Virus record (IMG/VR): IMGVR_UViG_3300032239_000183
Location: 1-24,608 of that record
Strand: one strand, 5' to 3'
DNA length: 24,608 bases
Origin: a virus
Lineage: Duplodnaviria; Caudoviricetes
The notes beneath the pieces are model-generated. The model was not told the origin of the DNA, ran no database searches, and saw only the letters and a list, made by a program, of their open reading frames with translations. Made by a program: the position numbers and the translations under genes. Numbering within the stretch: the stretch's first letter is position 1; each line of letters starts with the position of its first letter. Positions 2 to 24,063 of this stretch are shown here, in pieces.

Positions 2-322
2 GAACTTAACAAGGTAGCCGCTCCTAACCTACCATTGGCTACGCTTGAGTACGACCGTCAATATATTGACCAGTTAAACAACGTGATGCGTCTGTACTTC
101 AACAGACTTGATGCTCTGACAGGACAATTTATGACCAACACGGTCATGCCGCCCTTGACTAACTACACGGTGGCTACGTTACCCAGCGCAGTTACTTCAG
201 GAAAAGGCGCAAGGTCTTTTGTTACTGATGCTTTAGCTCCAACGTTTGGGGCAACCGTTGTGACCGGCGGCGCTATTGCTGTGCCTGTATATTCAGACGG
301 AATAAATTGGAAGGTCGGATAA
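2..322 (+). CDS. 5'-partial small conserved phage virion-block protein
   Basis: Frame is open from position 2 (ELNKVAAPNLPLATLEYDRQYIDQLNNVMRLYFNRLD...), so the TTG at 35 is not the true start. The APNLPLA..EY...Y..QLNNV.RLYFN motif is one I recall from small phage structural-region proteins. Stop overlaps the next start (TAATG, 320-324). Confidence 0.75.
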   Translation, partial: ELNKVAAPNLPLATLEYDRQYIDQLNNVMRLYFNRLDALTGQFMTNTVMPPLTNYTVATLPSAVTSGKGARSFVTDALAPTFGATVVTGGAIAVPVYSDGINWKVG

Positions 323-1599
323 TGGCAAACGCATATACCGCTGAAAATGTTGCTAAGTTAGCAAAACAAATCCTCGCGCAAGGAACCACTTCTAAGTGGA
401 CGGGTGGACTTGACCCACAAAAAGCTGCGTCATATATGGCTGATGACTTAGCTAAAAGCGGCATTACGGACATCTCTCAAGTTGGTCGGGGCGAAAACGG
501 CATTGTTAATAAATTAACTGGACAACAACTGGTTTCAAATTATGGTGATCGCACGAGCGGCAATCTATGGTCGGGCTCTTACGAAGGTAAAGGCAATACG
601 GGTTTTGGTGTGCAGTTTGATGCCAAAGGCAATCCGGTCTTTTACTCACAGGGTGCGTCGTCCAATGACCTAGTTAATATGCTGGGCGATAACAAATTGC
701 TCAACGCTGCCGCACAACTTGGCGCTGCGTATTTTGGCGGCCCCGCCGGTTCTGCTGCGTTAAATGCAGCAATGGGTAAAAGTGTTGGAGACATTGCTAA
801 GTCTGCGTTGTTATCTTATGCCGGTGGTCAAGCTGCGGGCGCTGTTTCCGGCATGGAAGGCATTCAAGATATCTTGGGTAAGACTGGGACAGACCTTGCC
901 TCTAAAGCCGCTAGCAGTTTTGTCACTAATCAAGGCAAATTTGACCTTGAAAAGTTTTTGTTAAGCCAAGGATTAAACGCGGGTAAAAACGCTTTAAGTT
1001 CAGCAAATTCTTTTGGTGGTTGGGACGCAAATTCCAAAGACTTCACGGAAGGTTATTTCCTGCCCGGTGGCGAAGGCTACATTGACCCTATGTCAAAAAC
1101 TGCCGGTGTGACTGGCTCTGGTTACTATGATGAGATTACAGGTCGGTATATTAAAGATGACTTGGGTGGTTTGCAAAACCCCCTTGGCGCAAACACTGGT
1201 AACTTAGATCCCAACCAAAAGTGGGAATACAACCAGATTAGACCTAACGTATGGGCCGACAAAGACGGTAACGAGCTGGACATGAGCTACTTGCCCAACT
1301 CTCAAACAGCGTTAACAGGCGCAGATATTATGAGGAGCGCTGGTGCATTGCCCGGCGGTTCAGGTGGTACTAAAACAGATGCCGGTGGTGGTAATAAGAC
1401 TACTACGCCAGCCACATCGGGATTAGACTTGTCCAAATTGTTATCTTTGCTTGCTGCCGGTGATCAACAAACTCCTACGACAACCCCTATCCAAGATCCA
1501 TACGCCCATATAAAATCAATGGAAAACGTATTTGGGGATGACATTGCTTATAAATTAGCTTCCCTTGAAGCGGACAAAGGAAAACAAAATGGCGGATGA
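322..1599 (+). CDS. Putative internal virion/ejection-region protein, Gly/Ala/Thr-rich (425 aa)
   Basis: Long ORF; ATG at 322 is coupled to the upstream stop. Gly/Ala-rich amphipathic middle (AAAQLGAAYFGGPAGSAAL). Function inferred from position only. Confidence 0.7.
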   Translation: MANAYTAENVAKLAKQILAQGTTSKWTGGLDPQKAASYMADDLAKSGITDISQVGRGENGIVNKLTGQQLVSNYGDRTSGNLWSGSYEGKGNTGFGVQFDAKGNPVFYSQGASSNDLVNMLGDNKLLNAAAQLGAAYFGGPAGSAALNAAMGKSVGDIAKSALLSYAGGQAAGAVSGMEGIQDILGKTGTDLASKAASSFVTNQGKFDLEKFLLSQGLNAGKNALSSANSFGGWDANSKDFTEGYFLPGGEGYIDPMSKTAGVTGSGYYDEITGRYIKDDLGGLQNPLGANTGNLDPNQKWEYNQIRPNVWADKDGNELDMSYLPNSQTALTGADIMRSAGALPGGSGGTKTDAGGGNKTTTPATSGLDLSKLLSLLAAGDQQTPTTTPIQDPYAHIKSMENVFGDDIAYKLASLEADKGKQNGG

Positions 1600-4579
1600 A
1601 CTAAGCCCAACCGACTCTGGCTACGGCAAAACAATTGGAATTGGTTCCAATGCTATTACTCAAGCTGCGGACAATAGCGGTAACACATCGGCAATAGACA
1701 ATTTAACCCGTTACTCTACGGATTTTTTTGATATTAATAATCCCGTAGGAAATACAAACTTTAACTACACCATACCCGGTGCATACACTAGCACGGGGCT
1801 AACTAATACAAACGGCACAGTACTTGATACTGTAAAGAGCCTCTTTACAGACAAAGATGGCAACTTGAACCTGCAAGCGCTTGGTGCTTTAGGTGGTGGT
1901 TTGGCTGGTTTAGCGGGTGCAATGAATAAGACAACCACACCTTCAGGATATCAAGGCGGCATCCCTGAGCTTACTGCTACACGCCACATGATTCAAGCAC
2001 CGCCAACTAAAGAACAGGGGTATCGTCCCGGCGCTGGTGGCATTGACTATGGTGGCGATGTAACTTACACACGCACACCCGGTGTTGATTCTTGGGCAAA
2101 CTTAAACGGTTTTTCTGGAACATCAGCGGGCGCTAACTTAGGTGGACTTGGTAGCCTAACGCCGGGCGGTACAAGAACAATAACACCCGGCAGTACAGTC
2201 ATTCCCGGGGGTACAAAAACTGTTGTTCCCGGTAGTACAGTTGTACCTGCACGACCAATAATTCCAAACGAAACCGGGTCTGTTGAAGTTAAACCTAAAC
2301 CACCTACACCTCCTAATTTAGGTTCTACAGGATACCAAAACGCCATAAAAGCTGGCTTAACGCCCGCCCAATATTTAAACAACATCAATCAGTGGATTCT
2401 TAATAATCCTCGCGCAAGTCGCGATCAGATTGACGCTGCTTTAAAACAATATGGCGTAAGTGACACTGACCTTCAAGAAGCTTTGCGTACTACAAATTTT
2501 TCTGATTCTACTAAGTACGGTTTAACCCACGGTATGGGGTTGCAGGAAATAAACAACAACATTACCAATTGGATTGCTGCTCACCCATACGCAACCAATG
2601 ACCAAATTCAAGCAGTACAAAAACAATACGGCGTAAATGATGAAGATGTAGCCCGCGCTATGAATGGTTTAAATTCTTCAGCCGGTAAAGAGTACGCAGT
2701 TGTCCATGACATGGGTCTGGATCAGTTGTACAAAAACATTCTGGACTACCAAGCCGCAGGCCATACACCTACTGAAATTGCCAATGTAATGTCCCAGTAC
2801 GGCATTGAACAACGTGATGTTAATAACGCCAACAAATATGCTACTTCAACTGGGTACACAGCAAATCCAACTTCATATGCTGGTGTTGGTGATTACAGCA
2901 ATCTTGGTGGTGGGTCTACTGCGGCCAGTAATACCGCCGTTAGTTCTGGCGGTGGAGAATCTACCGCTGTTAATAATGCCGCTGTTAATAATGCTGTTGT
3001 CAATAATTCCACTGCCAGCTCTGGTGGAACAAACCAAGGTTTAGATACAAGTAATAGTATTTATCAATATTTTGCAAGACCTGAAACTCAAGCCGCTTTA
3101 GCGTCTGGAGATACACGCGGTATTGCCGAAACAATGCAAGCCCTTGGGTATTCGCCAGCAGATGTGGCGGCGGCTACAGGTACAAATGTTGCCGACGTTC
3201 AAGCCGCTTATGATGCGGCTTTGGGCGGTGGAACCCAGTCTTATGACCCGTACTCTGAAGCGTTTGCTGAAGGCGGTATGGCTAAAGGCCGTTATTTACA
3301 AGGCGGTACAGATGGTATGGCTGACAAAATTCCAGCGCAAATTGGAGCAAGTCAACCCGCTGCGCTTAGCCACGGCGAGTTTGTTATTCCTGCGGATGTC
3401 GTGTCTCATATGGGTAACGGCAACTCTGATGCTGGGGCCAAAAAACTTTATCAAATGATGGACAAAATTCGTATGGCACGCACAGGTACAAAGCAACAAG
3501 GCAAGAAGATCAACCCTGATAAGTTCATGCCCGGCGGTCTAGCTAACTCTAAATATGCTAGAGGTGGTTCTGTACGGCATTTTGATGCTGGAGGCGGCAT
3601 TTCAGGTGTTGGCACTGCTGCTAATGCCGGTGTTACCGGTACGGAATCCGCACTTTCTAACTGGGTAGGCCCTTACACAACCAACATGTTGGGTCAAGGT
3701 CAAGCTCTAGCTAATGCGCCTTATCAAGCATACATGGGCCCCCTTACTGCGGGTGAGTCTCCCTTGCAAACTCAGGCGTTTGGCACTGCCGCAAATTTAA
3801 CAACCCCAACAAGTATTGGCGATGCCGCTACTCAAGCGGGTAACATTTCTACTGCGGCTCAAGGGTTGAAATACACACCTAATACTTCTTCGTTTGATAC
3901 TACGCAAGCTCAAGCGTACATGAATCCGTATTTAGAGGCTTCTTTAAAACCTCAATTAGAAGAAGCTCGCCGTCAGTCCTTGATTACTCAGCAGGGTAAT
4001 GCTGCCAAAATGACTCAGGCTGGTGCTTTTGGTGGGTCTCGTCAAGCTATTCTTGATGCTGAAACTCAGCGTAACCTTGGCACTAACCTAGCTAATATTA
4101 CAGGCACTGGATACAACACTGCGTATAACAATGCGCAGACTCAGTTTAATGCTGACCAACAACGTAAGATGGCTGAAAACCAATACGGCGCTGGCTATGG
4201 ACTGCAAGGGTTGCAGACTGGCCTACAAGCTGCTCAAGCACAAGGTGTTTTGGGTGGTCAGGAAAATCAAATTGGTTTGGCAAACTTGGCGCAGCAGCTT
4301 GCTGCGGGTCAGCAACAACGTGGTATTGAGTCTGAAGGCATTGCTGCTGACAAAGCTCAGTTTGAAGAAGCTAGGGCTAACCCTTATAAAATGGTTCAGT
4401 TCCAACAGTCATTGTTGCAGGGCTTACCTACAAGCGCACAAAACATTAACATGGCTCAACCTAGCACTTTGCAACAGATCCTTGCCGGCGCTGGCGGTGT
4501 GGCTGGTATGTTCCCCACTGCAGGTACAACAGGTGCGCAAGACTTGGCAGCAGCGTTGAAAAAATTAGGTATTGGCTAA
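1589..4579 (+). CDS. Putative internal virion (DNA ejection/pilot) protein, multi-module (996 aa)
   Basis: AAGGA RBS upstream of ATG 1589. Contains 59-aa repeats, an FAEGG...SHGEFVIPADVV module and a Gln/Gly-rich C-terminal part (YMNPY...GAFGGSRQA) resembling podovirus DNA-transfer proteins. Confidence 0.7.
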   Translation: MADELSPTDSGYGKTIGIGSNAITQAADNSGNTSAIDNLTRYSTDFFDINNPVGNTNFNYTIPGAYTSTGLTNTNGTVLDTVKSLFTDKDGNLNLQALGALGGGLAGLAGAMNKTTTPSGYQGGIPELTATRHMIQAPPTKEQGYRPGAGGIDYGGDVTYTRTPGVDSWANLNGFSGTSAGANLGGLGSLTPGGTRTITPGSTVIPGGTKTVVPGSTVVPARPIIPNETGSVEVKPKPPTPPNLGSTGYQNAIKAGLTPAQYLNNINQWILNNPRASRDQIDAALKQYGVSDTDLQEALRTTNFSDSTKYGLTHGMGLQEINNNITNWIAAHPYATNDQIQAVQKQYGVNDEDVARAMNGLNSSAGKEYAVVHDMGLDQLYKNILDYQAAGHTPTEIANVMSQYGIEQRDVNNANKYATSTGYTANPTSYAGVGDYSNLGGGSTAASNTAVSSGGGESTAVNNAAVNNAVVNNSTASSGGTNQGLDTSNSIYQYFARPETQAALASGDTRGIAETMQALGYSPADVAAATGTNVADVQAAYDAALGGGTQSYDPYSEAFAEGGMAKGRYLQGGTDGMADKIPAQIGASQPAALSHGEFVIPADVVSHMGNGNSDAGAKKLYQMMDKIRMARTGTKQQGKKINPDKFMPGGLANSKYARGGSVRHFDAGGGISGVGTAANAGVTGTESALSNWVGPYTTNMLGQGQALANAPYQAYMGPLTAGESPLQTQAFGTAANLTTPTSIGDAATQAGNISTAAQGLKYTPNTSSFDTTQAQAYMNPYLEASLKPQLEEARRQSLITQQGNAAKMTQAGAFGGSRQAILDAETQRNLGTNLANITGTGYNTAYNNAQTQFNADQQRKMAENQYGAGYGLQGLQTGLQAAQAQGVLGGQENQIGLANLAQQLAAGQQQRGIESEGIAADKAQFEEARANPYKMVQFQQSLLQGLPTSAQNINMAQPSTLQQILAGAGGVAGMFPTAGTTGAQDLAAALKKLGIG
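2159..2248 (+). repeat. Degenerate 42-bp (14-aa) coding tandem repeat
   Basis: TPGGTRTITPGSTV / IPGGTKTVVPGSTV / VP. Confidence 0.7.
2354..2830 (+). repeat. 59-aa (177-bp) protein repeat, about 2.7 copies
   Basis: Units start at 2354, 2531 and 2708 and share NI..(W/Y)...(Q/E)I....QYG(V/I)...D(L/V)..A. Confidence 0.8.
2966..3010 (+). repeat. 15-bp tandem repeat x3 (AVNNA)
   Basis: gctgttaataatgcc / gctgttaataatgct / gttgtcaataattcc. Confidence 0.85.
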
Positions 4580-4591
4580 AGGAAAATAATC

Positions 4592-6628
4592 ATGACGGCT
4601 GGAATTAATCAACTTGTTGATACATACAAGGGCAACCCACAGCCCTTAAATGCAAAGGTTCAACAAGCGCAGCAGAAGCAACCGCCCGGTTCTATTCCTC
4701 CTGATCTAGAGGAAGCGATGGCGCTTCAAAAGATTGCTGAGTTACGTAACGGTGCTCAGAATCAACAAGCCATGCAAGCTGGTGGTACTCAGCCCTCCAT
4801 TATGGAAAAGCTGCGCCAAATACTTGGTATGCAACAGCAACAGATGGCTCAAGCCCCACAACAAATGGGTCAGCCTCAACAAATGGGTCAGCCCCAACAA
4901 CCTGTGATGGCGGCTCGTGGTGGAAGTATTGACCAGCTTGTATCTAACCTTGGTCGTGGCTATGCTGGCGGTGGCATTATTGCGTTTGCTAAACCTACAG
5001 AAGAAAATAATCGAAGCCAAGTTGAAGATCCAGATGAAAAAAAGGACAAAGAATACGATGATGTAAATGTACTTTCCGCTGCTGGAACAACGGCTGCTAC
5101 GCTGTCTCCCATTTATGCAAAATTACTTCAAATGTCGGCAAACGCTGCGCGACATGGACTTAAATTGCCAATGTATCCCGCTGGTACAAGCGCTACTTCA
5201 GCTATAGGGCAAACTGCAGCAACTACGGGTTTCCCCCTTGCAGTGGCTGGTGGTGGTACAGCCGCAACTTTAAAAGCTATGCAAGATCTTCAGGCTATGT
5301 CGCCTGAACAACGTCGGGCGTTAGCGGCTAATCCTATGCTTAGCGCTATGGGTGGGGACGCCGGCATAGCTGCTGCGATCCAAGAAGCAGGGGGCGATGA
5401 ACCTCGTCAAAACAAGTCTTCGTATTTTGAGCAAATTGGTAATGCTCTGGGTACTATCCCTAAAATTGCGGGTGAGGCGGGGATTGCTGGTCTTAAACAT
5501 CTTGTTAGCGCACCGGGCTATGGCTTTCAGTCTGACTTTTCTTCTACACCTAAACCTAAACCTACTGCAACGCCGTCTCCAACTGACCCCAACTTCCGCC
5601 GTCAAACTGACCCTCGCATGCTTGGAGTTTCGTCAGTTGCAGACGATGTGCCGCTTATTACCTCTGCTCCCGGTTCTAAACCTAGTAGTGGTGGTGGCGG
5701 TGGCGGTGGCGGCGGTGGTGGAATAAACACCTCACAAAAAGTTGACCCCAATAGCTTAGATGCTATAACTCGTGCGTACCTCAAGGGCGAGTTTGCTGTT
5801 AGTCCTGAAGCTGAACGTGACAAAGCTGTTGACTGGACTAAGAAAACTCTTGGCCTTGATTCGCTTCTTGCTGAGAAACAAGGTCGTATTGACTCACGCG
5901 AAAAAGCAATTGCTGCTGCTCAAGCTGCGCGTACTCCTGAATGGGTCAAGGGTCTACAGGCAGTGGGCGGTGCGCCTATTCGTGGCGGTATAGGCATGGT
6001 GTTGGCGCAAGCTGGCGCTGGCGCTACAAAAGCCCGTGAAGCTTACGCTGACCAAGACATGAAGTATGTTGAGGAATTAGATCGCCTACGCGATGTTATT
6101 ACCGATGCCAAGATTAAGGGTAACTACGAATTGGCTAAAGAAGGTATGGCGGCATACAAAGAGGTGGACGCACGTCGTCGCGCTGCTGCTCAATCTTCAG
6201 CTAGCTTACTTAACACTGATGCAAATAATGCGGCACGTATTCAACAAGCCAATATTACTGCTCAAGCAAGACGTGATTCTCAACAACAAGAGGCTAACTA
6301 CAAGCTTGAAAAACTTAAACAAGGTGAGCGTGCTCAGCAAATTAGAATTGCCCAAGTTGGTTTGACTGCTCAAAAACCTGCAATCGACGCGGCTGCAAAA
6401 GAAGCTAAGCTGCAACGAATGATATATGAAGCGTTTAAGGATAAAAATCCAGAAAAAGCCGCTACTGCTTTGGATAATGCAGAGCAAGCTCAGCATAGAA
6501 TTGATATGATCTTGGCTCCGTTATCAGGAATTGCTGGCTCTAGTGTTGCGGCTGCTCCTACAGGTTCAACATCATCTGCCTCATCTGTAGCTCCACCCGG
6601 AGCAGTTAGAGAAGTGAAGAAGTCATAA
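4592..6628 (+). CDS. Putative internal virion/ejection protein (678 aa)
   Basis: AAGGA RBS. Gln-rich N-terminus, MAARGG and YAGGGIIAFA motifs, Gly11 linker (5690-5722), helical C-terminal half. Sits directly before the giant polyvalent gene. Confidence 0.7.
   Translation: MTAGINQLVDTYKGNPQPLNAKVQQAQQKQPPGSIPPDLEEAMALQKIAELRNGAQNQQAMQAGGTQPSIMEKLRQILGMQQQQMAQAPQQMGQPQQMGQPQQPVMAARGGSIDQLVSNLGRGYAGGGIIAFAKPTEENNRSQVEDPDEKKDKEYDDVNVLSAAGTTAATLSPIYAKLLQMSANAARHGLKLPMYPAGTSATSAIGQTAATTGFPLAVAGGGTAATLKAMQDLQAMSPEQRRALAANPMLSAMGGDAGIAAAIQEAGGDEPRQNKSSYFEQIGNALGTIPKIAGEAGIAGLKHLVSAPGYGFQSDFSSTPKPKPTATPSPTDPNFRRQTDPRMLGVSSVADDVPLITSAPGSKPSSGGGGGGGGGGGINTSQKVDPNSLDAITRAYLKGEFAVSPEAERDKAVDWTKKTLGLDSLLAEKQGRIDSREKAIAAAQAARTPEWVKGLQAVGGAPIRGGIGMVLAQAGAGATKAREAYADQDMKYVEELDRLRDVITDAKIKGNYELAKEGMAAYKEVDARRRAAAQSSASLLNTDANNAARIQQANITAQARRDSQQQEANYKLEKLKQGERAQQIRIAQVGLTAQKPAIDAAAKEAKLQRMIYEAFKDKNPEKAATALDNAEQAQHRIDMILAPLSGIAGSSVAAAPTGSTSSASSVAPPGAVREVKKS
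4859..4900 (+). repeat. 18-bp tandem repeat x2.3 (QQMGQP)
   Basis: caacaaatgggtcagcct / caacaaatgggtcagccc / caacaa. Confidence 0.85.
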
Positions 6629-6629
6629 T

Positions 6630-9600
6630 ATGCCAACATACCAAGTTGATGTCGGGAACAAAACTTACGAAGTAGATGCACCGGATCCCAACACTGCTTG
6701 GCGTTGGGCTAACTCAACACACTCTACACAAGAGACTAAAGCTAAAGAACGTACTGCGGGTGAAGCGGTTACTGACGTAGGTGCTGGCCTACTGTCGGGT
6801 TTGGGTAGCCTTGGTCAATTCCCCGGTCAGCTTTACGGATTGGCTACGGGTGACTTCTCAAAAACTGGTCTCTATGGCGCTGCTCAAGAACTTGAAGAAT
6901 ACGGTAAGGGATTAAAGTCCAAAGGTCTTCAAGCAAGGGAAGCGGCTGCGCAACGTGCTGTACAAGAAGCCCAAAAGAAGGGCGAGTGGGAAGCGTTTAA
7001 AACTTCAATTGGTCAAACTGTTTCTGATCCTGCACTGCTGGCTAATTTCTTTGCTGAACAATTACCACAACAATTACCCGCTGCCCTTGCCGCTATTGGT
7101 ACTCCTGCCGCCTCTGCTGAAGTTGCTGCGCTTCGCGCTACTGCACAAAAAGCTGCTGCTGGTGTAGCTAAACAAGAAGCTGAAACTGCGGCTAAAAAAG
7201 CTGCTGTTGATTTGGGCGCAAAGTCTGCGGTAAGAACTGCCGCAGTTCAGCAAGGTGCTGACGTAGGTACAGGTACTTACGAGGCTATGTATAAGTACCT
7301 CACCGAACAACAAAAGATGGGTGAGCAAGAAGCAGCAGATGCAACCATTAATTACGCTCGTGCTGCTGGTCTTGGTGGCGCAGCTTTATCGTTACTAGCT
7401 CAGAAACTTCCCGGATCGCAAGCGTTTGAGCGTGCGTTGGCAGGTGAGAAAACAGGCATGGGTCGTATTACTGGCGCACTTGCTGGCGCTATTAAAGAAG
7501 CCCCCGGTGAGAACATTGAAGAAGTTGGTGGTCGTGCGCTGCAGAACTTGGCGATGCGTCAAGTTAATCCTAAACAAGCCCTTACTGAAGGATTTGGTGA
7601 AACAGCCGCTCAAGCTACGCTGGGTGCTGTGGGTATGGGCGGCGCGGCAGGTATTGCTAGCGGTGGTGGTAAGGCTGCTACAGAAGGTGGTACAAAGACT
7701 GCTGAAGAAGCCGATGCGCTTGATGCGATTAAACAGGGTGAGCAGACTGCGGAAGAAAAACCCCCTGAAGAACAACCTAACGCAATTAAAAAAGCGATTA
7801 AAGAACAGAAGCGTAGCCAGATCGCTAAAACAAGTACTGATCTAGAACAGCTTAACGGCATTTTGAATCAGTACAACGAGATGCTTGCAAAAGCTGAAGC
7901 GGCTGGAACAATATCAAATTCTTTTAATACAAATATTGCTACAGCAAGGAATAATCTTGCCAAACGTATTGAAGGGTTGACTACCGCAGGAGTTGCAGAT
8001 GCTACAAAACCTATCGAATCAGCAGGTGGAGAAGGCGCTGGCGTGGATCTACAATCCAATACCGGAACCAATACCCAAGGAGCTGCGACACCTCCAGCAG
8101 ATGGAGTGGTTCTTACTGAGCCGAATGCTGGAAAGCCTCCTACAGGAGCAGGAGGACAGCCCCCTGCAGTAAATGTCCAAGTAAAGGGAAGCCAAGCGCA
8201 AAACCTACGCAACAAGCGTAAGCAACAGAAAATAGATCCCGCTGATTTGCCAATTGGCGCTGAAGATCCAATTGAGCAAGAAGAACGTGAACAAGCAAAA
8301 TGGTACGGGCTTGACTACGATAGCTACATTACGCAAGCCGGCCTTGATGAAGACCGCTTTTACACAGACTTACAAGCCGCAGAAATTAAAGCTGCTGCTG
8401 GCAGATTTAAACTTGATCTTGGTGACTACGCGTCTGATGCAGGGTTTGACGACAACCGTTTCTGGAACGACGTTGACTCACTAAAAGATGCATCAAAGGA
8501 AAAAGCGCCAGCGCCTCAACGCGGTGCGTTTCAAGAGTTACCAGACAAAGCATCAATTGCAGGTCAAACCGATGAAGACCTTCAAAAGACTGTTGACGAG
8601 TTGCGCCAGCAAAAACGCGAGGGTTTATACAAGCTAAGCAAAGAAGAGCAGGAACTGTACAACGAGCAACGTCAAGCACATTCTGAAAACATTGAACAGT
8701 CCGCTAAAGAAATTGCAGAAGAGCTAATTAATGAACAAGGTAATCTCCCAGAGGCTACCGCGGAAGACATTGAAGACGACAAAGGTTTTGTTACAGAACA
8801 GTTAGGCAAGCTGCTTAAACTACCTTCGTTTAGCGATCTAACACCCTATGAGAAGGGTATCTACTTTGGTGGTCAAGCCGCAAAGTTTGGTAACAGCGTA
8901 GCAGAACATATTGATGCGACTCAGCGCTTGCTAGAGTACCGTGCCGATTTGCTTGCTGTTCAGCGTGACGCACGTAAGAAGGCTCGTAACGAAGCTAAGC
9001 GTGGCGGGGCTTCCAAGGAGTCAACAGAAGTTGCCGCTAAAGCTGCGGCAGATGAAGCTAGAAAAGATTTTGAAATACAGCACAGTTACGAGCAGAACAA
9101 ACCAAGCACGCTGCCTAACTGGAACAGCTTATCTGAAGAAAACAAACAGGTATACCGTGACACAGTACAGCAGGGTAGCCCTGCAGAACAAGAACTTGCT
9201 TTCCGTAAGATACGCAAAACAGAAACAAAGTTCTCTCAATCAGAAGCTGAAGACAAGCGTCAAAGGGAGCAGCAAGCTAATGATGACCTAGTTGCGCAAA
9301 TGCACGCCGCAACTGAGGCGATGATTGAGAATGACCCTAAGAGCCAAGGTGATGCGCTAACCGTGCAGATGATTCGTCGTTTGCAAGAGGGTGATGTTAA
9401 AGGTGTTCTTCAGTGGCTATCAGATAATGCCCGTGGTGCTAAGACTGCGCCCCTTACCCGTGTGGGCATTACCAAAGCAGAGATCAAAACGCAGAAGGTT
9501 AAGCAAGAAGAGTACTTAAAACTTGTTGCTGAGAATGAGCGTAAACGTCTGCTTGAGACTGAAGAAGATCCAGTTAGTATTGAGCGTAAGGTTAAGCAAG

Positions 9601-12600
9601 CGGTTAAGACTGCTGAAGAGCGCCTTAAATACAAGCGTGGCTCGTTAGTGCGTGAGGGTAGTCTTGCAGGACAACTAATCCGCGTTTCTCGTGAGATGAG
9701 TTCAAAGGTTTATCGCAATCTTGCCGAGTCTTTACTGTCAACAATTGGCGATACTAAGATCAAAGTAGTATTTGATCCAAACCTTGATCCCAAAGAAGGT
9801 CTGGCTAAGTACGACCCCAAAACAAACACAATGACGTTTGGCCCATTTGGGTTTACAGAAACTGCCGTACTGCATGAGATAACGCACGCAGTTACAGCTA
9901 AGATCATTCGTCAGTTCTTTAAAGACCCATCTGTTTTGACTGAAAGACAGCGTAAGGGTGTTGAGCATCTGCAAACAATCTTTGCTTTGTCACAGAGCAA
10001 ACTGGGTAAGAAGTTCCCAGCGGCATTTAAGAATCTGTATGAGTTTGTTGCGTACTCAATGACTGACTTGAAGTTCCAAAATGAACTTGTCAAGATACAG
10101 TTAAATGATGCAGTCCGCGCTACAGGACGCGCCCGAGTGGGACAGGTAATACGTGACTATGAATTCCCTACAGGTAAAACTGTATGGGATGCGTTCACTA
10201 CAGCACTTGCTTACATTTACAAAGCCTTTACGCCTAGCAAGAGAAAGACTGACTATCTGGTTCCCGTTGAAAATTACGGCAACAGAAATGTTACTACAGG
10301 CGTGCAGGCGTTGCCTAAAGGCGCAAGGGACAAAATAACTGAAGCGGACGAAGCCTTCCTTGAAAGAATGCAGGAAAAGGGGCCACCCCTGCCCGATGAG
10401 ATTGCATTGCTCACGGGCGCTGACGAAGCCATTAAAGACGAAGAGTCCACCTTTGACGAAGGTATTAGCGATGGCGAAGCTGCCCTTGCTGGCGTTAAGA
10501 GCATTCCGTTCAATACAACTATGGATAGCCTTGCTCCGGGTATGACGGCCCGTGTTGGTGCAACCGTTACTAAAGGCGGCATCACTAATCTTCGTAAAGA
10601 TACGTACACACAGCCCGGCTACAAAGGTAACTTGCTAATAGAAGCTGCCGCAGCTTTTAACGACATTATGGTTGCGCCCGAAGCCGTAGAAGAAGTCCCA
10701 GAGTTGGCAACGCAAGGAAGCGCTGCTGCAACTCCACCAACACCTGCCGCTACTCCTGCGCCAGCTAAACCCGCAACGCCTAAGAATCAGCCAAAGGCTG
10801 AGACTACAGCTTCGTTTGAAGAACAAGTTGACTCTGCTACGGGTTCGCAGATGCCAAGGACAAAACAAAGTCTGTACAAACTGTTTACAACCGCAGAGGG
10901 CGGCAGGGAAATCATCCGTCGTTTTGCAAACAACCGCCATGCCATCAAAGCATGGGAAGCTGCAAACGAAATGGTTGGCAAGATCGTATACGCGGGCGAG
11001 AAGATTAATGCTGTGTACAACGAAATCACAATGTCCACAGGCCGTGCGCGTAACATATACGAGCGCGAATTAGAGCAAGACATTCAGTCCATCCATGACA
11101 TGATGCAGAAGTTAGCTGATAAAGCTGGCGTAGACTTTGACCGCACCCTTAAAACAATGCACGTCTTTGCCCGTACATTGCATGAGCGTGAGCGTCGCCA
11201 TATTAAGTTCTTGTTTTACGCGCCACTTGATTTAGCGTCTGCCACACGTCGTGGAGAAATCATCCAGAAGTTCCGCAAGGGCGACAAGATGACCGACAAG
11301 GAGATTGAAGGCTATCGCGGAGAGCTTGAGAAGTTTGCGAAACCAACAAGTCAGGGTGGTAATCTTGACGCGGTGAACGGCTACTCGTGGGTTAGTGATC
11401 CTACATCGTCAATCCGTATTGGGGATAAGAACATGTCTTACACCTCTGCTGATGAGCAGAGTACTCAGTACAACGTGATTGCTAATTATGATTTGCCTTC
11501 ACGGGAAGCTGCATACAAAGCATATGAGGGTTATGCGCATAAAGCTGAAGTCGATGCAATCCTAGAAAAGATTGAAGACCTCCAAAAGAAAACAATAAAG
11601 CTTAATAAAGACGCTAACTATTGGTCGCAACCCGTGGACAATGTTGTTAAGTTGTATGACTTTCAACACTACGTACCGTTTAAAGGCCGCGCTTACGATA
11701 AAGTTGATGATCAATTTGACATTAGAACAGGCGCTGGTAGGGAACTGCAAGAAGCGCAGAACACTTTTGAAGGTCGTGTTTCCGATTCTAATAACACGAT
11801 CGTGCAAACAATGCTTGATGCAACTCACGCCGCGGCGCGTGCTGGTCGCAGTGGTGTAGATGGACAAGGTTTAACTTTAGCGCTTAAAAATGCGGTGAAC
11901 TCCGGCATGATTAAGGGCGATGCAAAACTTAAAATTAAATTTGAAGACCGATATAAAGGTGAAATAGACGTAGCCAAGTTGCGCGGTAAGAATGCGATCT
12001 TCCATTACGAACCTGATGGAACAATCACAATCATCAAGATTGATGACCCACACCTGCGCGAAGCTATCCGCAGAACATACCGCGAAGCTAACCCCGTGGT
12101 GAGCGTGCTGAACTCTGCTACAAGTTTCTTTGGGCAGATGCACACCCGCTACAACATCCCATTTGCGCCGGCTAACTTCTTAATTGATGGATTAACTAAC
12201 ACATTTAACATAGCCGCTAAAGAAGGCTGGGGCGTTGGCGCTAGCTATTTAAAGCAGTTGATCGGTCAGCAGGTTCTTCATGGTGGTCTGTACAAGGCTG
12301 GTAAGTTTTCTGCTCTGTACACAGCTAAGAAATTTGGTGAGATTGAGCGCCTTGCCAAAACCGATCCAGACTTCAGGGATCTGAATGAGTATGTAAACGC
12401 TGGCGGTAAAGTGTCTTATATCCGGAGCTTGACTGCCGAAGGTTTGGCTGAAGATTTTGAAGCGGATATTAAGGGTAACAATGTATTTGTTACGACTAAA
12501 AAAGGTATAGATAAAGTAATTGACGTTTGGTCTGATTCTTTTGAATTGGCAAGCCGTGTAGCTGCGTACCGTATTCTTAAAGAACAGTACATGAAGAAAG

Positions 12601-13952
12601 GTATGAGCGAAGCAGAGGCAAAGCAGAAAGCCGTGGGCGATGGCAAAAACTTAGCTAACTTTGAACAGGTTGGTGAGTGGGGTCAGGCTATGGGCGCTAT
12701 GTTCATGTTCTTCCGCCCCGCTGCTACAGGCGCAGTGCGTGCAATCGAGGCTTTGGCTCCCGCGTTTGTTAGTGCGGACAAGGCCGTGAAGATGCTACCT
12801 AATGAGGGAACATTTGCTTACGAGTTTAAAGACGGTGAACGGGTCTATAAAAATCCTGAAGCCGTTAAAAAATACAAGAAGGAACATAACAAGCGCCAAC
12901 AACATGCTCGCGCTGTTGCAGGTGGTTTAATTGGCATGGGCATGATGGTTTACGCGATGGGCGCAGTGGCTGGTGGTGATGATGATCTGGGTCGCAACAA
13001 AGCTGAGACTGATGACATGGCTCGTTACACCCGCTACGCTCGGTTCCACTTCCGCGTGGGTGATAGAGACTTTGTGTTCCAACTGCCTTGGGGCTTTGGT
13101 CTTGGTGCTTTTGCTTCTGCTGGCGCTCAGATGGCGGGCTACGCACATGGTGCGGTCATGCGCCCAGAGGGAGATCGTAGTTTCTTTGGCATGTTAAGTA
13201 ACATCATGGAGGTTACTCAAGACTCATTCTTGCCCATACCGGTGTCTAGAATTGACAAATACGAGAAGCCAGCCGAGTGGTTGGCGGATACTTTTGCCCC
13301 ATCTATCTTGCGACCCATGATTGAGTACGCGATGAACACAGACGCGTTGGGTCGTGACATTTACAACGCTCAGAAGAGCCGAGTGAGTGAAGTGTTTGTC
13401 GGTGGCGATAGCGTACCCGAGTTGTACAAAGGTGCGGCAAAGATGCTTTACGACATTACCGGTGTGCCTGTATCGCCTAACGTAATGTATTTCTTTGCTA
13501 ATAACTACGCAGACGGCCTAGCCCGGGTGATGCACAACGGTGTCAATGTTGCGCAAGCTATGGTTGGCAATAAAGAGTTTGACCCCCGCACAGATACAGT
13601 CTTGTTTGACCGCTTCTTTGGCGCAGTGTCTAACGTCGATGCTAGGGAGTTTGCTAAAGTGTCCAAAGAAATTAAGGATATCTCTAGCACAATCAAAACT
13701 TTAAAGGATGACCCAGAGCGCTACGCTAAATATCTGTCTAAGAATCCTACACACGAGTTTATTGTTGAACACTATAACTCTGCAATCAATGGCACTTTAA
13801 AAGATTTCCAAGAGCAGAAGAACAATGTACGCAAGATGCAAGAGCTTTCACAAGCAGAGCGCACATCAATGCTACGTTACCTGACATTGGGTGAAAACAT
13901 TGTTAAGCGCGGAATCCTGCACGAATTCAACGCGCTTGATATTAAGCCCTAA
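6630..13952 (+). CDS. Large polyvalent (putative injected) protein with zincin-like metallopeptidase and C-terminal LPD38-like domain (2440 aa)
   Basis: HEITH at 9873-9887 with a downstream Glu in NLYEFVAY (10041). C-terminal motifs FELASRVAAY, FQLPWGFG and PSILRPMIEYAMNTDALGRDIY are LPD38-like. Last gene of the virion block. Confidence 0.75.
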   Translation: MPTYQVDVGNKTYEVDAPDPNTAWRWANSTHSTQETKAKERTAGEAVTDVGAGLLSGLGSLGQFPGQLYGLATGDFSKTGLYGAAQELEEYGKGLKSKGLQAREAAAQRAVQEAQKKGEWEAFKTSIGQTVSDPALLANFFAEQLPQQLPAALAAIGTPAASAEVAALRATAQKAAAGVAKQEAETAAKKAAVDLGAKSAVRTAAVQQGADVGTGTYEAMYKYLTEQQKMGEQEAADATINYARAAGLGGAALSLLAQKLPGSQAFERALAGEKTGMGRITGALAGAIKEAPGENIEEVGGRALQNLAMRQVNPKQALTEGFGETAAQATLGAVGMGGAAGIASGGGKAATEGGTKTAEEADALDAIKQGEQTAEEKPPEEQPNAIKKAIKEQKRSQIAKTSTDLEQLNGILNQYNEMLAKAEAAGTISNSFNTNIATARNNLAKRIEGLTTAGVADATKPIESAGGEGAGVDLQSNTGTNTQGAATPPADGVVLTEPNAGKPPTGAGGQPPAVNVQVKGSQAQNLRNKRKQQKIDPADLPIGAEDPIEQEEREQAKWYGLDYDSYITQAGLDEDRFYTDLQAAEIKAAAGRFKLDLGDYASDAGFDDNRFWNDVDSLKDASKEKAPAPQRGAFQELPDKASIAGQTDEDLQKTVDELRQQKREGLYKLSKEEQELYNEQRQAHSENIEQSAKEIAEELINEQGNLPEATAEDIEDDKGFVTEQLGKLLKLPSFSDLTPYEKGIYFGGQAAKFGNSVAEHIDATQRLLEYRADLLAVQRDARKKARNEAKRGGASKESTEVAAKAAADEARKDFEIQHSYEQNKPSTLPNWNSLSEENKQVYRDTVQQGSPAEQELAFRKIRKTETKFSQSEAEDKRQREQQANDDLVAQMHAATEAMIENDPKSQGDALTVQMIRRLQEGDVKGVLQWLSDNARGAKTAPLTRVGITKAEIKTQKVKQEEYLKLVAENERKRLLETEEDPVSIERKVKQAVKTAEERLKYKRGSLVREGSLAGQLIRVSREMSSKVYRNLAESLLSTIGDTKIKVVFDPNLDPKEGLAKYDPKTNTMTFGPFGFTETAVLHEITHAVTAKIIRQFFKDPSVLTERQRKGVEHLQTIFALSQSKLGKKFPAAFKNLYEFVAYSMTDLKFQNELVKIQLNDAVRATGRARVGQVIRDYEFPTGKTVWDAFTTALAYIYKAFTPSKRKTDYLVPVENYGNRNVTTGVQALPKGARDKITEADEAFLERMQEKGPPLPDEIALLTGADEAIKDEESTFDEGISDGEAALAGVKSIPFNTTMDSLAPGMTARVGATVTKGGITNLRKDTYTQPGYKGNLLIEAAAAFNDIMVAPEAVEEVPELATQGSAAATPPTPAATPAPAKPATPKNQPKAETTASFEEQVDSATGSQMPRTKQSLYKLFTTAEGGREIIRRFANNRHAIKAWEAANEMVGKIVYAGEKINAVYNEITMSTGRARNIYERELEQDIQSIHDMMQKLADKAGVDFDRTLKTMHVFARTLHERERRHIKFLFYAPLDLASATRRGEIIQKFRKGDKMTDKEIEGYRGELEKFAKPTSQGGNLDAVNGYSWVSDPTSSIRIGDKNMSYTSADEQSTQYNVIANYDLPSREAAYKAYEGYAHKAEVDAILEKIEDLQKKTIKLNKDANYWSQPVDNVVKLYDFQHYVPFKGRAYDKVDDQFDIRTGAGRELQEAQNTFEGRVSDSNNTIVQTMLDATHAAARAGRSGVDGQGLTLALKNAVNSGMIKGDAKLKIKFEDRYKGEIDVAKLRGKNAIFHYEPDGTITIIKIDDPHLREAIRRTYREANPVVSVLNSATSFFGQMHTRYNIPFAPANFLIDGLTNTFNIAAKEGWGVGASYLKQLIGQQVLHGGLYKAGKFSALYTAKKFGEIERLAKTDPDFRDLNEYVNAGGKVSYIRSLTAEGLAEDFEADIKGNNVFVTTKKGIDKVIDVWSDSFELASRVAAYRILKEQYMKKGMSEAEAKQKAVGDGKNLANFEQVGEWGQAMGAMFMFFRPAATGAVRAIEALAPAFVSADKAVKMLPNEGTFAYEFKDGERVYKNPEAVKKYKKEHNKRQQHARAVAGGLIGMGMMVYAMGAVAGGDDDLGRNKAETDDMARYTRYARFHFRVGDRDFVFQLPWGFGLGAFASAGAQMAGYAHGAVMRPEGDRSFFGMLSNIMEVTQDSFLPIPVSRIDKYEKPAEWLADTFAPSILRPMIEYAMNTDALGRDIYNAQKSRVSEVFVGGDSVPELYKGAAKMLYDITGVPVSPNVMYFFANNYADGLARVMHNGVNVAQAMVGNKEFDPRTDTVLFDRFFGAVSNVDAREFAKVSKEIKDISSTIKTLKDDPERYAKYLSKNPTHEFIVEHYNSAINGTLKDFQEQKNNVRKMQELSQAERTSMLRYLTLGENIVKRGILHEFNALDIKP
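7999..8172 (+). CDS. Nested overprinted small protein (57 aa) in the +1 frame of the giant gene
   Basis: AGGAG at 7988-7992, 6-nt spacer, ATG 7999, TAA 8170-8172. Translation MLQNLSNQQVEKALAWIYNPIPEPIPKELRHLQQMEWFLLSRMLESLLQEQEDSPLQ. The host frame here is a low-complexity linker with unusual GGA codon use. Confidence 0.65.
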   Translation: MLQNLSNQQVEKALAWIYNPIPEPIPKELRHLQQMEWFLLSRMLESLLQEQEDSPLQ

Positions 13953-23565: not shown

Positions 23566-24063
23566 TTAAATGTAAGCGGATTGCAGTTTAGTTGCGTACC
23601 AAACCATCTTGTCCACGTCCTTGCCTGCATCATCTTTGTGGCCTGCTCGCGTCAAGTACTTAACGACGTTACCCTTAAGATACCCACGGAACTCATCGGG
23701 TGTCAGCTTGGCTTTGATTATGTCGATCGTCTCAATGCCACCGATCTTGTAGTGCGGGGGCTGATTAACATCATCAATGGATCTCTGCATGCGCACCTTG
23801 GGCTTTGTCGCATTAAACACAAGACGACTCATCTGCTCGTCAGTCAGGTTGGTCTTGTCGTCTTTGCCCATCATTACACCTTGCACTTTAACTAATGGAT
23901 CAGGTGTAGCTGATGCCTTAAGTTTCTTGCGTTCTTGATGCATTGCGGAATACACATACTGGATAGTTGTACCAAGTGCTTCTGCGACTGCCTTTGCTTT
24001 CGCATCGGGGTGATCCTTGATGTAGTTACGGATCTTTTGTACTTTGCTAAGTTTTTTAGCCAT
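23566..24063 (-). CDS. DUF3310 (SaV / T7 gp1.7-like) domain protein with N-terminal HTH-like region (165 aa)
   Basis: C-terminal VNQPPHY..GGIETID.I...GYLKGNVVKYL.RAG.K...D..K..WY. N-terminal KIRNYIKDHPDAKAKAVAEALG..IQYVY. GGAG RBS. Confidence 0.82.
   Translation of the reverse strand: MAKKLSKVQKIRNYIKDHPDAKAKAVAEALGTTIQYVYSAMHQERKKLKASATPDPLVKVQGVMMGKDDKTNLTDEQMSRLVFNATKPKVRMQRSIDDVNQPPHYKIGGIETIDIIKAKLTPDEFRGYLKGNVVKYLTRAGHKDDAGKDVDKMVWYATKLQSAYI

Follow-up and report, generated by a model that had tools for sequence, protein, structure and literature searches.

The window, by which we mean the whole stretch of DNA analysed here (24,608 nucleotides), is a virus record of 24.6 kb, about 38% complete, that comes from an uncultured lake phage. 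Contigs from freshwater and lake sequencing runs of four studies mapped onto it, two of them covering all of the stretch; no RNA dataset was listed among the sequencing runs with matches. The minus strand carries genes for PolA, an SNF2 helicase, a PD-(D/E)XK nuclease and a DUF927 primase, and the best identity to a PolA of cultured phages is 34%, in the Pseudomonas phage KPP25 group and Rhizobium RHph phages. Also on this strand, an ORF of 165 aa (23566-24063) ends in a C-terminal 'VNQPPHY...ETID' domain, of the kind expected in phage nucleotide kinases resembling DUF3310. On the plus strand lie four large co-oriented genes, the last of which encodes a giant protein of 2440 aa and harbors a short candidate gene in its +1 frame:

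307..6628, plus strand: three upstream genes of 430, 1004 and 678 aa, G/A/Q-rich and co-oriented with the giant gene
6630..13952, plus strand: giant host gene, 2440 aa, polyvalent-type, with LPD38 and an HExxH peptidase
7988..7992, plus strand: Shine-Dalgarno (SD) sequence AGGAG of the nested gene, within host codons for Ala-Gly
7999..8172, plus strand: nested 57-aa gene in the +1 frame of ORF 6630-13952, ATG at 7999-8001 and TAA at 8170-8172
8128..8169, plus strand: codons 44-57 of the nested gene, acidic amphipathic helix end and [LVI][HQ] tail, LESLLQEQEDSPLQ, putatively Lon-tail-like
9687..10244, plus strand: zincin-like metallopeptidase region of the giant (HExxH ... EF), with invariant residues

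Like polyvalent proteins, the giant combines LPD38 (aa 2128-2316) and a zincin-like HExxH...E peptidase in one very large protein. The peptidase motif reads HEITH at aa 1082, and H63, E64, H67, E119 and F120 of the peptidase region were invariant across 42 aligned rows. Residues 27-431 showed a weak likeness to the N-terminus of the virion RNA polymerase phrog_2206. A sequence search of the giant against the PDB returned nothing significant, and its C-terminus had no match in 50,697 cultured phage records. Among relatives, peptidase domains are swapped freely between giants; the motif HExxH occurs twice each in the giants of L025, L038, L068 and L072, and an HExxxH variant is found in those of L020, L042, L060, L167 and L170. 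By analogy with the polyvalent proteins of PMC5512222 and with phi24B gp47, an LPD38 protein reported to be carried in the virion (bioRxiv 10.64898/2026.04.10.717836), the giant is likely a packaged ejection protein. The three upstream genes, which had no match in Pfam or PHROG, would then encode other internal virion or ejection proteins of its operon.

The nested ORF falls within a variable G/A/P/T linker of the giant (host codons 457-515). An earlier note on this DNA had described it as a hidden gene with an AGGAG ribosome-binding site (RBS), a 6-nt spacer, ATG at 7999 and TAA ending at 8172; all coordinates proved exact and the 57-aa translation identical, the spacer reads TTGCAG, and a recount returned the same composition (8 D/E, 4 K/R, two Trp). 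The note's count of GGA at 9 of 12 host-frame Gly codons was reproduced in a 60-codon segment starting at 7980. Within the nested span itself, GGA makes up 8 of 11 Gly codons versus 19 of 187 elsewhere in the giant, a bias beyond chance (Fisher p=5e-6). Within one genome, the GGA bias is alone among these features in exceeding chance expectation; the ORF and its RBS do not. The stop-to-stop length of the nested frame (63 codons) ranks only 9th among the giant's +1 segments (87 stops). In 1000 synonymous shuffles of the giant, the nested span remained open in 179, and an SD followed by ATG and an ORF of at least 50 aa arose somewhere in the +1 frame in 75. A promoter scan found 1 site versus 1.6 expected, and thus no sign of a promoter belonging to the nested gene.

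The comparative data were decisive instead. Searching IMG/VR with the 57-aa peptide yielded 95 relatives, of which 80 were kept (53-96% identity), and every one of the 80 matches sat inside a long ORF (1776-3201 codons if complete, at least 590 if cut by a contig end), in its +1 frame. We then took a census of starts and stops over 78 of these loci plus the window, 79 in all; L071, which is truncated ahead of its stop, and L072, whose start lies further upstream, were excluded. Start codons were ATG in 49 and GTG in 30 loci, with no others; the SD core was kept in 78 of 79 aligned loci; and stops were TAA (46), TAG (31) or TGA (2), giving proteins of 56-59 aa. Homologues losing the RBS or ATG, or gaining +1-frame stops, which the earlier note had named as the observation that would speak against a gene, were looked for, and SD, start and stop were found to be kept. 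An SD duplex of -5 kcal/mol or stronger preceded 62 of 62 nested starts, compared with 15% of 2361 other +1-frame ATG or GTG codons, and the RBS region was less structured than the local background in 59 of 62 loci. In L072, L117 and L119, SD-preceded starts are positioned further upstream. At L143:7968-8174, an ATA stands in place of the ATG that its sister L144 carries behind the same AGGAGG, with a nearly identical peptide, which may represent either a rare start codon or a recent loss.

Selection was then compared in both frames. In 1888 of 1891 pairs drawn from 62 distinct DNA sequences, conservation was higher for the nested than for the host protein, and pN/pS was 0.11 in the nested versus 5.35 in the host frame, as calculated from 48 pairs above 90% DNA identity that are not independent of each other. 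Change concentrates at nested third positions (entropy 1.08, versus 0.50 at second positions). Comparison with the two closest relatives revealed differences at 0 of 118 host third positions in the span versus 1444 of 4872 gene-wide, and among contig variants 1 of 6 inside the span fell on host third positions versus 24 of 32 outside (p=0.012). These data support the reading of the GGA bias as a footprint of +1-frame selection. The drop in third-position change was seen in no other part of the giant, leaving a second nested gene unsupported.

Because the first locus set had been found with the peptide itself, we ran a second search with the giant's last 640 aa. This unbiased set comprised 58 loci, 6 of which stop short of the linker and 52 of which cover it; the family was present in 48 of the latter. 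The four misses (L101, L116, L123, L128) are near-identical copies of one lineage, and counted non-redundantly over all sets, 62 of 64 complete giants contain a family member. In the same linker part, the L101 lineage carries a 22-codon basic +1 ORF (L101:6405-6473, MAMKPL...RPQPQ), which follows an AAGGA by about 10 nt and may be either a relic or a nested gene of another kind. In L094 (5443-11005), the giant is split into several ORFs while the nested gene is intact; the broken giant may be an assembly error. Overall, the ORF lies wholly inside a shifted-frame ORF, has its own conserved RBS, start and stop, and is under purifying selection, as expected of an embedded gene. The hidden gene posited by the earlier note was thus borne out by the conserved SD, start and stop, by pN/pS and by the third-position drop among relatives, and the nested ORF is almost certainly a real, separately initiated gene maintained by selection in the +1 frame.

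A profile search of 1.84 billion proteins extended the family to 144 cluster representatives at E <= 0.001, about four of which look like chance matches to long or repetitive proteins (for example P0070, P0120 and P0151). Scans of 125 members against Pfam and PHROG found no family match, the 50,697 cultured phage records held no match for the small protein, and the family profile returned nothing significant in a sequence search of the PDB. No locus was found for P0154. A search for longer or fused forms found none, which is weak evidence, and a literature search, mostly outside subscription papers, found no earlier report of the nested gene. Two further matches were discarded: L140, the sole genome_contigs match, is a chance octapeptide in an unrelated transporter region, and L137 is reversed at a contig end. 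One called protein, P0055 (266 aa), passes from the host frame into the nested frame, probably through an assembly indel; its N-terminal part looks, to our eye, like an ADP-ribosyltransferase-type domain of polyvalent proteins.

AlphaFold2, run with 125 sequences, predicted a helix at residues 7-18, a Pro loop, a short turn, a second helix at 34-53 and a free tail (pLDDT 87, pTM 0.66), in agreement with the helix, Pro-loop, helix arrangement that had been read from the sequence. Foldseek searches of the PDB and BFVD found no match at E <= 0.001, the best VIA-align Z scores of 5.2 and 4.8 correspond to a common helix arrangement, and the ESM Atlas gave no usable match. Outside the tail, the most conserved residues are L5, A13, L17, P26, L29, L32, W37, L44, L47 and E50. 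The tail itself is distinctive: 61 of 62 nested members end in [LVI][HQ], compared with 35 of 2180 shadow +1 segments and 12 of 553 ordinary genes, and free-standing copies that were seen whole, and that have no overlap to constrain them, end in [IV]H. Across 125 aligned members, the last residue is only ever His (75), Gln (48) or Asn (2), having changed about 19 times on the tree; in the window copy it is Gln. Position -2 is L, I or V in 123 of 125 members, and position -3 is mostly Pro (63), Ser (15) or Gln (14), not L or I. The DUF927 primases of relatives L003, L019, L093 and L099 end in an acidic or Gln-rich stretch followed by [LIV]Q, which may be the same kind of tail.

The gene had been regarded as genetically locked inside the giant gene. 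This did not hold, as free-standing copies exist in two lineages and the L101/L116/L123/L128 lineage has an intact HExxH peptidase without the gene. In L141 and L142, the gene stands two genes upstream of the giant with its own AGGAGG, between equivalents of the window's upstream genes; in L152, L216, L217 and L218 it directly follows the giant's stop. Both forms remain in the same gene cluster, by ejection-type genes. They belong to a clade that includes Tara Oceans sequences, and the close relatives L143, L144, L145, L158, L166-L171 and L176 have the nested state. No copy was found in L161 (913 aa seen), L172/L173, L174 or L175, nor in the more distant L178-L180.

The L152 locus preserves traces of the transition. 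Its giant retains the codons and an orphan SD that precede the nested start in L143/L144, and the nested slot is replaced by a 12-nt APEV repeat. Moreover, the 20 bases after the giant's stop match the upstream flank of the nested gene at 18 of 20 positions, both in its own giant and in L143/L144, the next best comparison reaching 14-15 of 20. This flank fossil therefore indicates that the copy was duplicated out of the linker together with its flank and that the nested copy was lost, the sequences showing movement from nested to free in this lineage. In a midpoint-rooted tree of the neighboring 424-aa gene (FastTree, 14 sequences), the two free forms sit apart among nested ones with support of 0.96 each; as a caveat, the 58-column small-protein tree, also from FastTree, puts the L152 copy with L158, not with L143/L144. 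The wide spread of the nested state suggests that the family first originated by overprinting. Directly before the APEV repeat or nested slot, the L152 giant (aa about 660-720) and the giants of L143/L144 contain a compact domain that resembles an FtsK-gamma-type winged helix.

What might the small protein do? The earlier note had offered a dedicated partner of the giant, as chaperone or metallopeptidase inhibitor, or a host-targeting effector. Similarity of the small protein was compared with that of the giant's domains over 1830 pairs, a comparison partly biased because loci found with the peptide raise the nested identity. It correlated neither with similarity of the peptidase (rho 0.07) nor with that of the giant's C-terminal region (rho 0.10). 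Among 268 pairs with nested identity of at least 60%, the peptidase was less than 25% identical in 173. These data therefore speak against a protein dedicated to inhibiting or chaperoning a domain of the giant, and favor a conserved target elsewhere; the idea of a dedicated partner is weakened accordingly, and a host-targeting effector appears to fit best among the three options.

Our leading explanation, held tentatively, is a late Lon-engaging protein that protects ejection proteins. The small helical protein would be made late, together with the ejection proteins; its C-terminal helix and [LVI][HQ] tail would engage a host Lon-type protease; and as a decoy or regulator it would spare the ejection proteins, which are long and in part unfolded, up to the time of packaging. 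In this explanation we infer translation, late timing, the giant's ejection role and everything that concerns Lon. The C-terminal end of the small protein resembles Lon protease tails: Lon is reported to recognize x-L/I-L/I/V-H C-terminal ends, with Smg as the tightest degron (PMC11986505), and the Lon activator LarA to engage Lon through a helix and a short His-ending tail (PMC10665427). Aligned with 30 Smg tails, the family's last 16 residues are in register (L-14, L-11, L-10, E-8, L-2, H-1), a match reached by 1 of 2000 permutations in a post hoc test, with the caveat that two acidic amphipathic helices can match by register alone. Judged residue by residue against the Lon C-terminal His degron, L/I/V at -2 is present in 123 of 125 members and the terminal His in 75 of 125, the window copy with its Gln being among those that lack it, and L/I at -3 is rare in the family. 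Validated degrons also deviate at -3 (TLH, TVH and SLH in PMC11986505 Table 1), and Smg itself often has P or M there. The Gln ends fit less well, as just one Smg protein among 30 has a terminal Gln, and a His-to-Gln change in the published screen lengthened the half-life from 152 to 402 min, giving Gln no advantage over most other residues (PMC11986505 Table S1). Further points against the Lon reading include the gene-less L101 lineage and the ATA of L143. The most conserved residues lie outside the tail, which may therefore only set turnover; that the small protein does not track the giant's domains, in turn, suits a target outside the giant.

If the tail only sets lifetime, the small protein could possibly, though doubtfully, be an assembly or packaging helper or a small virion protein of the ejection operon, its binding target being a conserved phage structure such as the core, the portal or an ejection protein. 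Both escapes stayed beside ejection-type genes, P1 virions are reported to take up several Dar proteins, Ulx among them, in an ordered process that also involves DarB of roughly 2,000 aa (PMC12810830), and the LPD38 protein of phi24B, gp47, is virion-borne according to the same preprint. Set against this, small proteins share 60-70% identity in phages whose giants mostly share 17-31% over the N-terminus, peptidase and C-terminus, and one lineage manages without the small protein. The homology to the N-terminus of the upstream gene that we considered was rejected, as profile comparison gave no similarity (hhalign probability 0.08).

An effector acting on a host target other than Lon, for instance an acidic helix-turn-helix-like mimic binding a host regulator or defence protein, appears unlikely. 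Its similarity pattern is decoupled from phage phylogeny, as expected of a module fitted to the host (L003, 70% nested versus 18% C-terminal identity; L086, 30% versus 47%), and many weak structural neighbors are three-helix Myb, homeodomain or MarR folds; however, these matches reach Z <= 5.2 at most, the level of a common helix arrangement, and such an effector by itself leaves the near-invariant tail and the fixed late-operon place unexplained. More improbable is a dedicated, antitoxin-like inhibitor of the giant's metallopeptidase, made unstable through its tail: an HExxH or HExxxH peptidase accompanies the nested gene in almost all giants that carry it, and a degron-like tail would suit an unstable inhibitor, but the decoupling from the peptidase described above (173 of 268 pairs, rho 0.07) and the intact HExxH of L101 without a family member speak against it. 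Finally, the absence of an independent gene, with a programmed +1 frameshift to an alternative giant C-terminus or a coding-like RNA or DNA element in its stead, is largely refuted and very improbable, since, although the +1 frame is open for more than 100 codons upstream in some loci and P0055 crosses between the frames, a stop directly precedes the ATG in L001, L038 and L041, starts are only ATG or GTG at SD spacing, change favors nested third over second positions (entropy 1.08 versus 0.50) and free-standing copies have their own SD.

Returning to the Lon-engaging reading, its full evolutionary version, in which an overprinted linker gave rise to a folded de novo protein with a convergent Lon tail that serves as a late decoy or regulator and was freed at least twice, in a family widespread among aquatic podovirus-like phages, is doubtful as a whole. 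If true, the one release that retains a parent-frame fossil makes the gene's whole birth-and-release path readable and testable in one family. Judged from sequence, the nested family is unnamed, unannotated and conserved, and its escape from nesting is documented. Although it occurs in many lake and some marine phages, it is nearly invisible because nested genes are dropped by gene callers: it matches neither a family in Pfam or PHROG nor any of 50,697 phage records. The case points to variable linkers in giant virion genes as places to search for hidden genes. Having both states together with evidence of direction, the family renders overprinting and un-nesting testable, and should the tail engage Lon, it would constitute a new way for a phage to act on proteolysis in its host, with a link to virion assembly.

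Several known systems share parts of this arrangement. Phage polyvalent proteins with MPTase and LPD38 (PMC5512222) and phi24B gp47 have the LPD38 plus HExxH peptidase combination in common with the giant; the available text of PMC5512222 makes no mention of a nested gene and lacks the word 'overlapping', whereas the window's giant has one. The Lon His degrons of Smg, SulA and Y2853 (PMC11986505) and LarA (PMC10665427) pair an amphipathic helix with a short free [LVI]-H tail, as the family does. The family differs in being phage-encoded, in ending in Gln in about 40% of members and in usually having Pro, Ser or Gln at -3, and there is no homology outside the tail. T7 gp4.5 and lambda CIII are likewise short phage proteins acting on a host AAA+ protease, as the small protein may do, but their genes are ordinary ones of the early or middle class and do not lie within a late virion gene. 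The former is reported to inhibit Lon (PMC8230891) and the latter FtsH, as an amphipathic helix that is both substrate and inhibitor (PMC1838920); homology to gp4.5, CIII or PinA found no backing in the Pfam and PHROG scans of 125 members or in any significant structure match.

The closest architectural parallel is lambda Rz1 in Rz, where a small gene also lies wholly inside the shifted frame of another, over a genetically flexible linker, and is usually missed in annotation. An Rz1-type o-spanin carries a lipobox Cys signal and is encoded inside an i-spanin gene, whereas the 57-aa protein has no Cys and hence no lipobox; spanins belong to a lysis cassette, whereas the nested gene lies outside one, in a 2,000-3,200-aa polyvalent-type host. 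We rejected an o-spanin identity on these grounds, the missing Cys and the LPD38/peptidase giant as host gene. A survey of two-component spanins, the most closely studied case of embedded phage genes, described architectures that were embedded, overlapped or separated, reported no family with both embedded and separated members, and favored the direction from separated to embedded (PMC6139136). Families in that survey are thus single-state as reported, whereas the family found here occurs in both the nested and the free-standing state and retains a DNA fossil pointing in the opposite direction, from embedded to separated.
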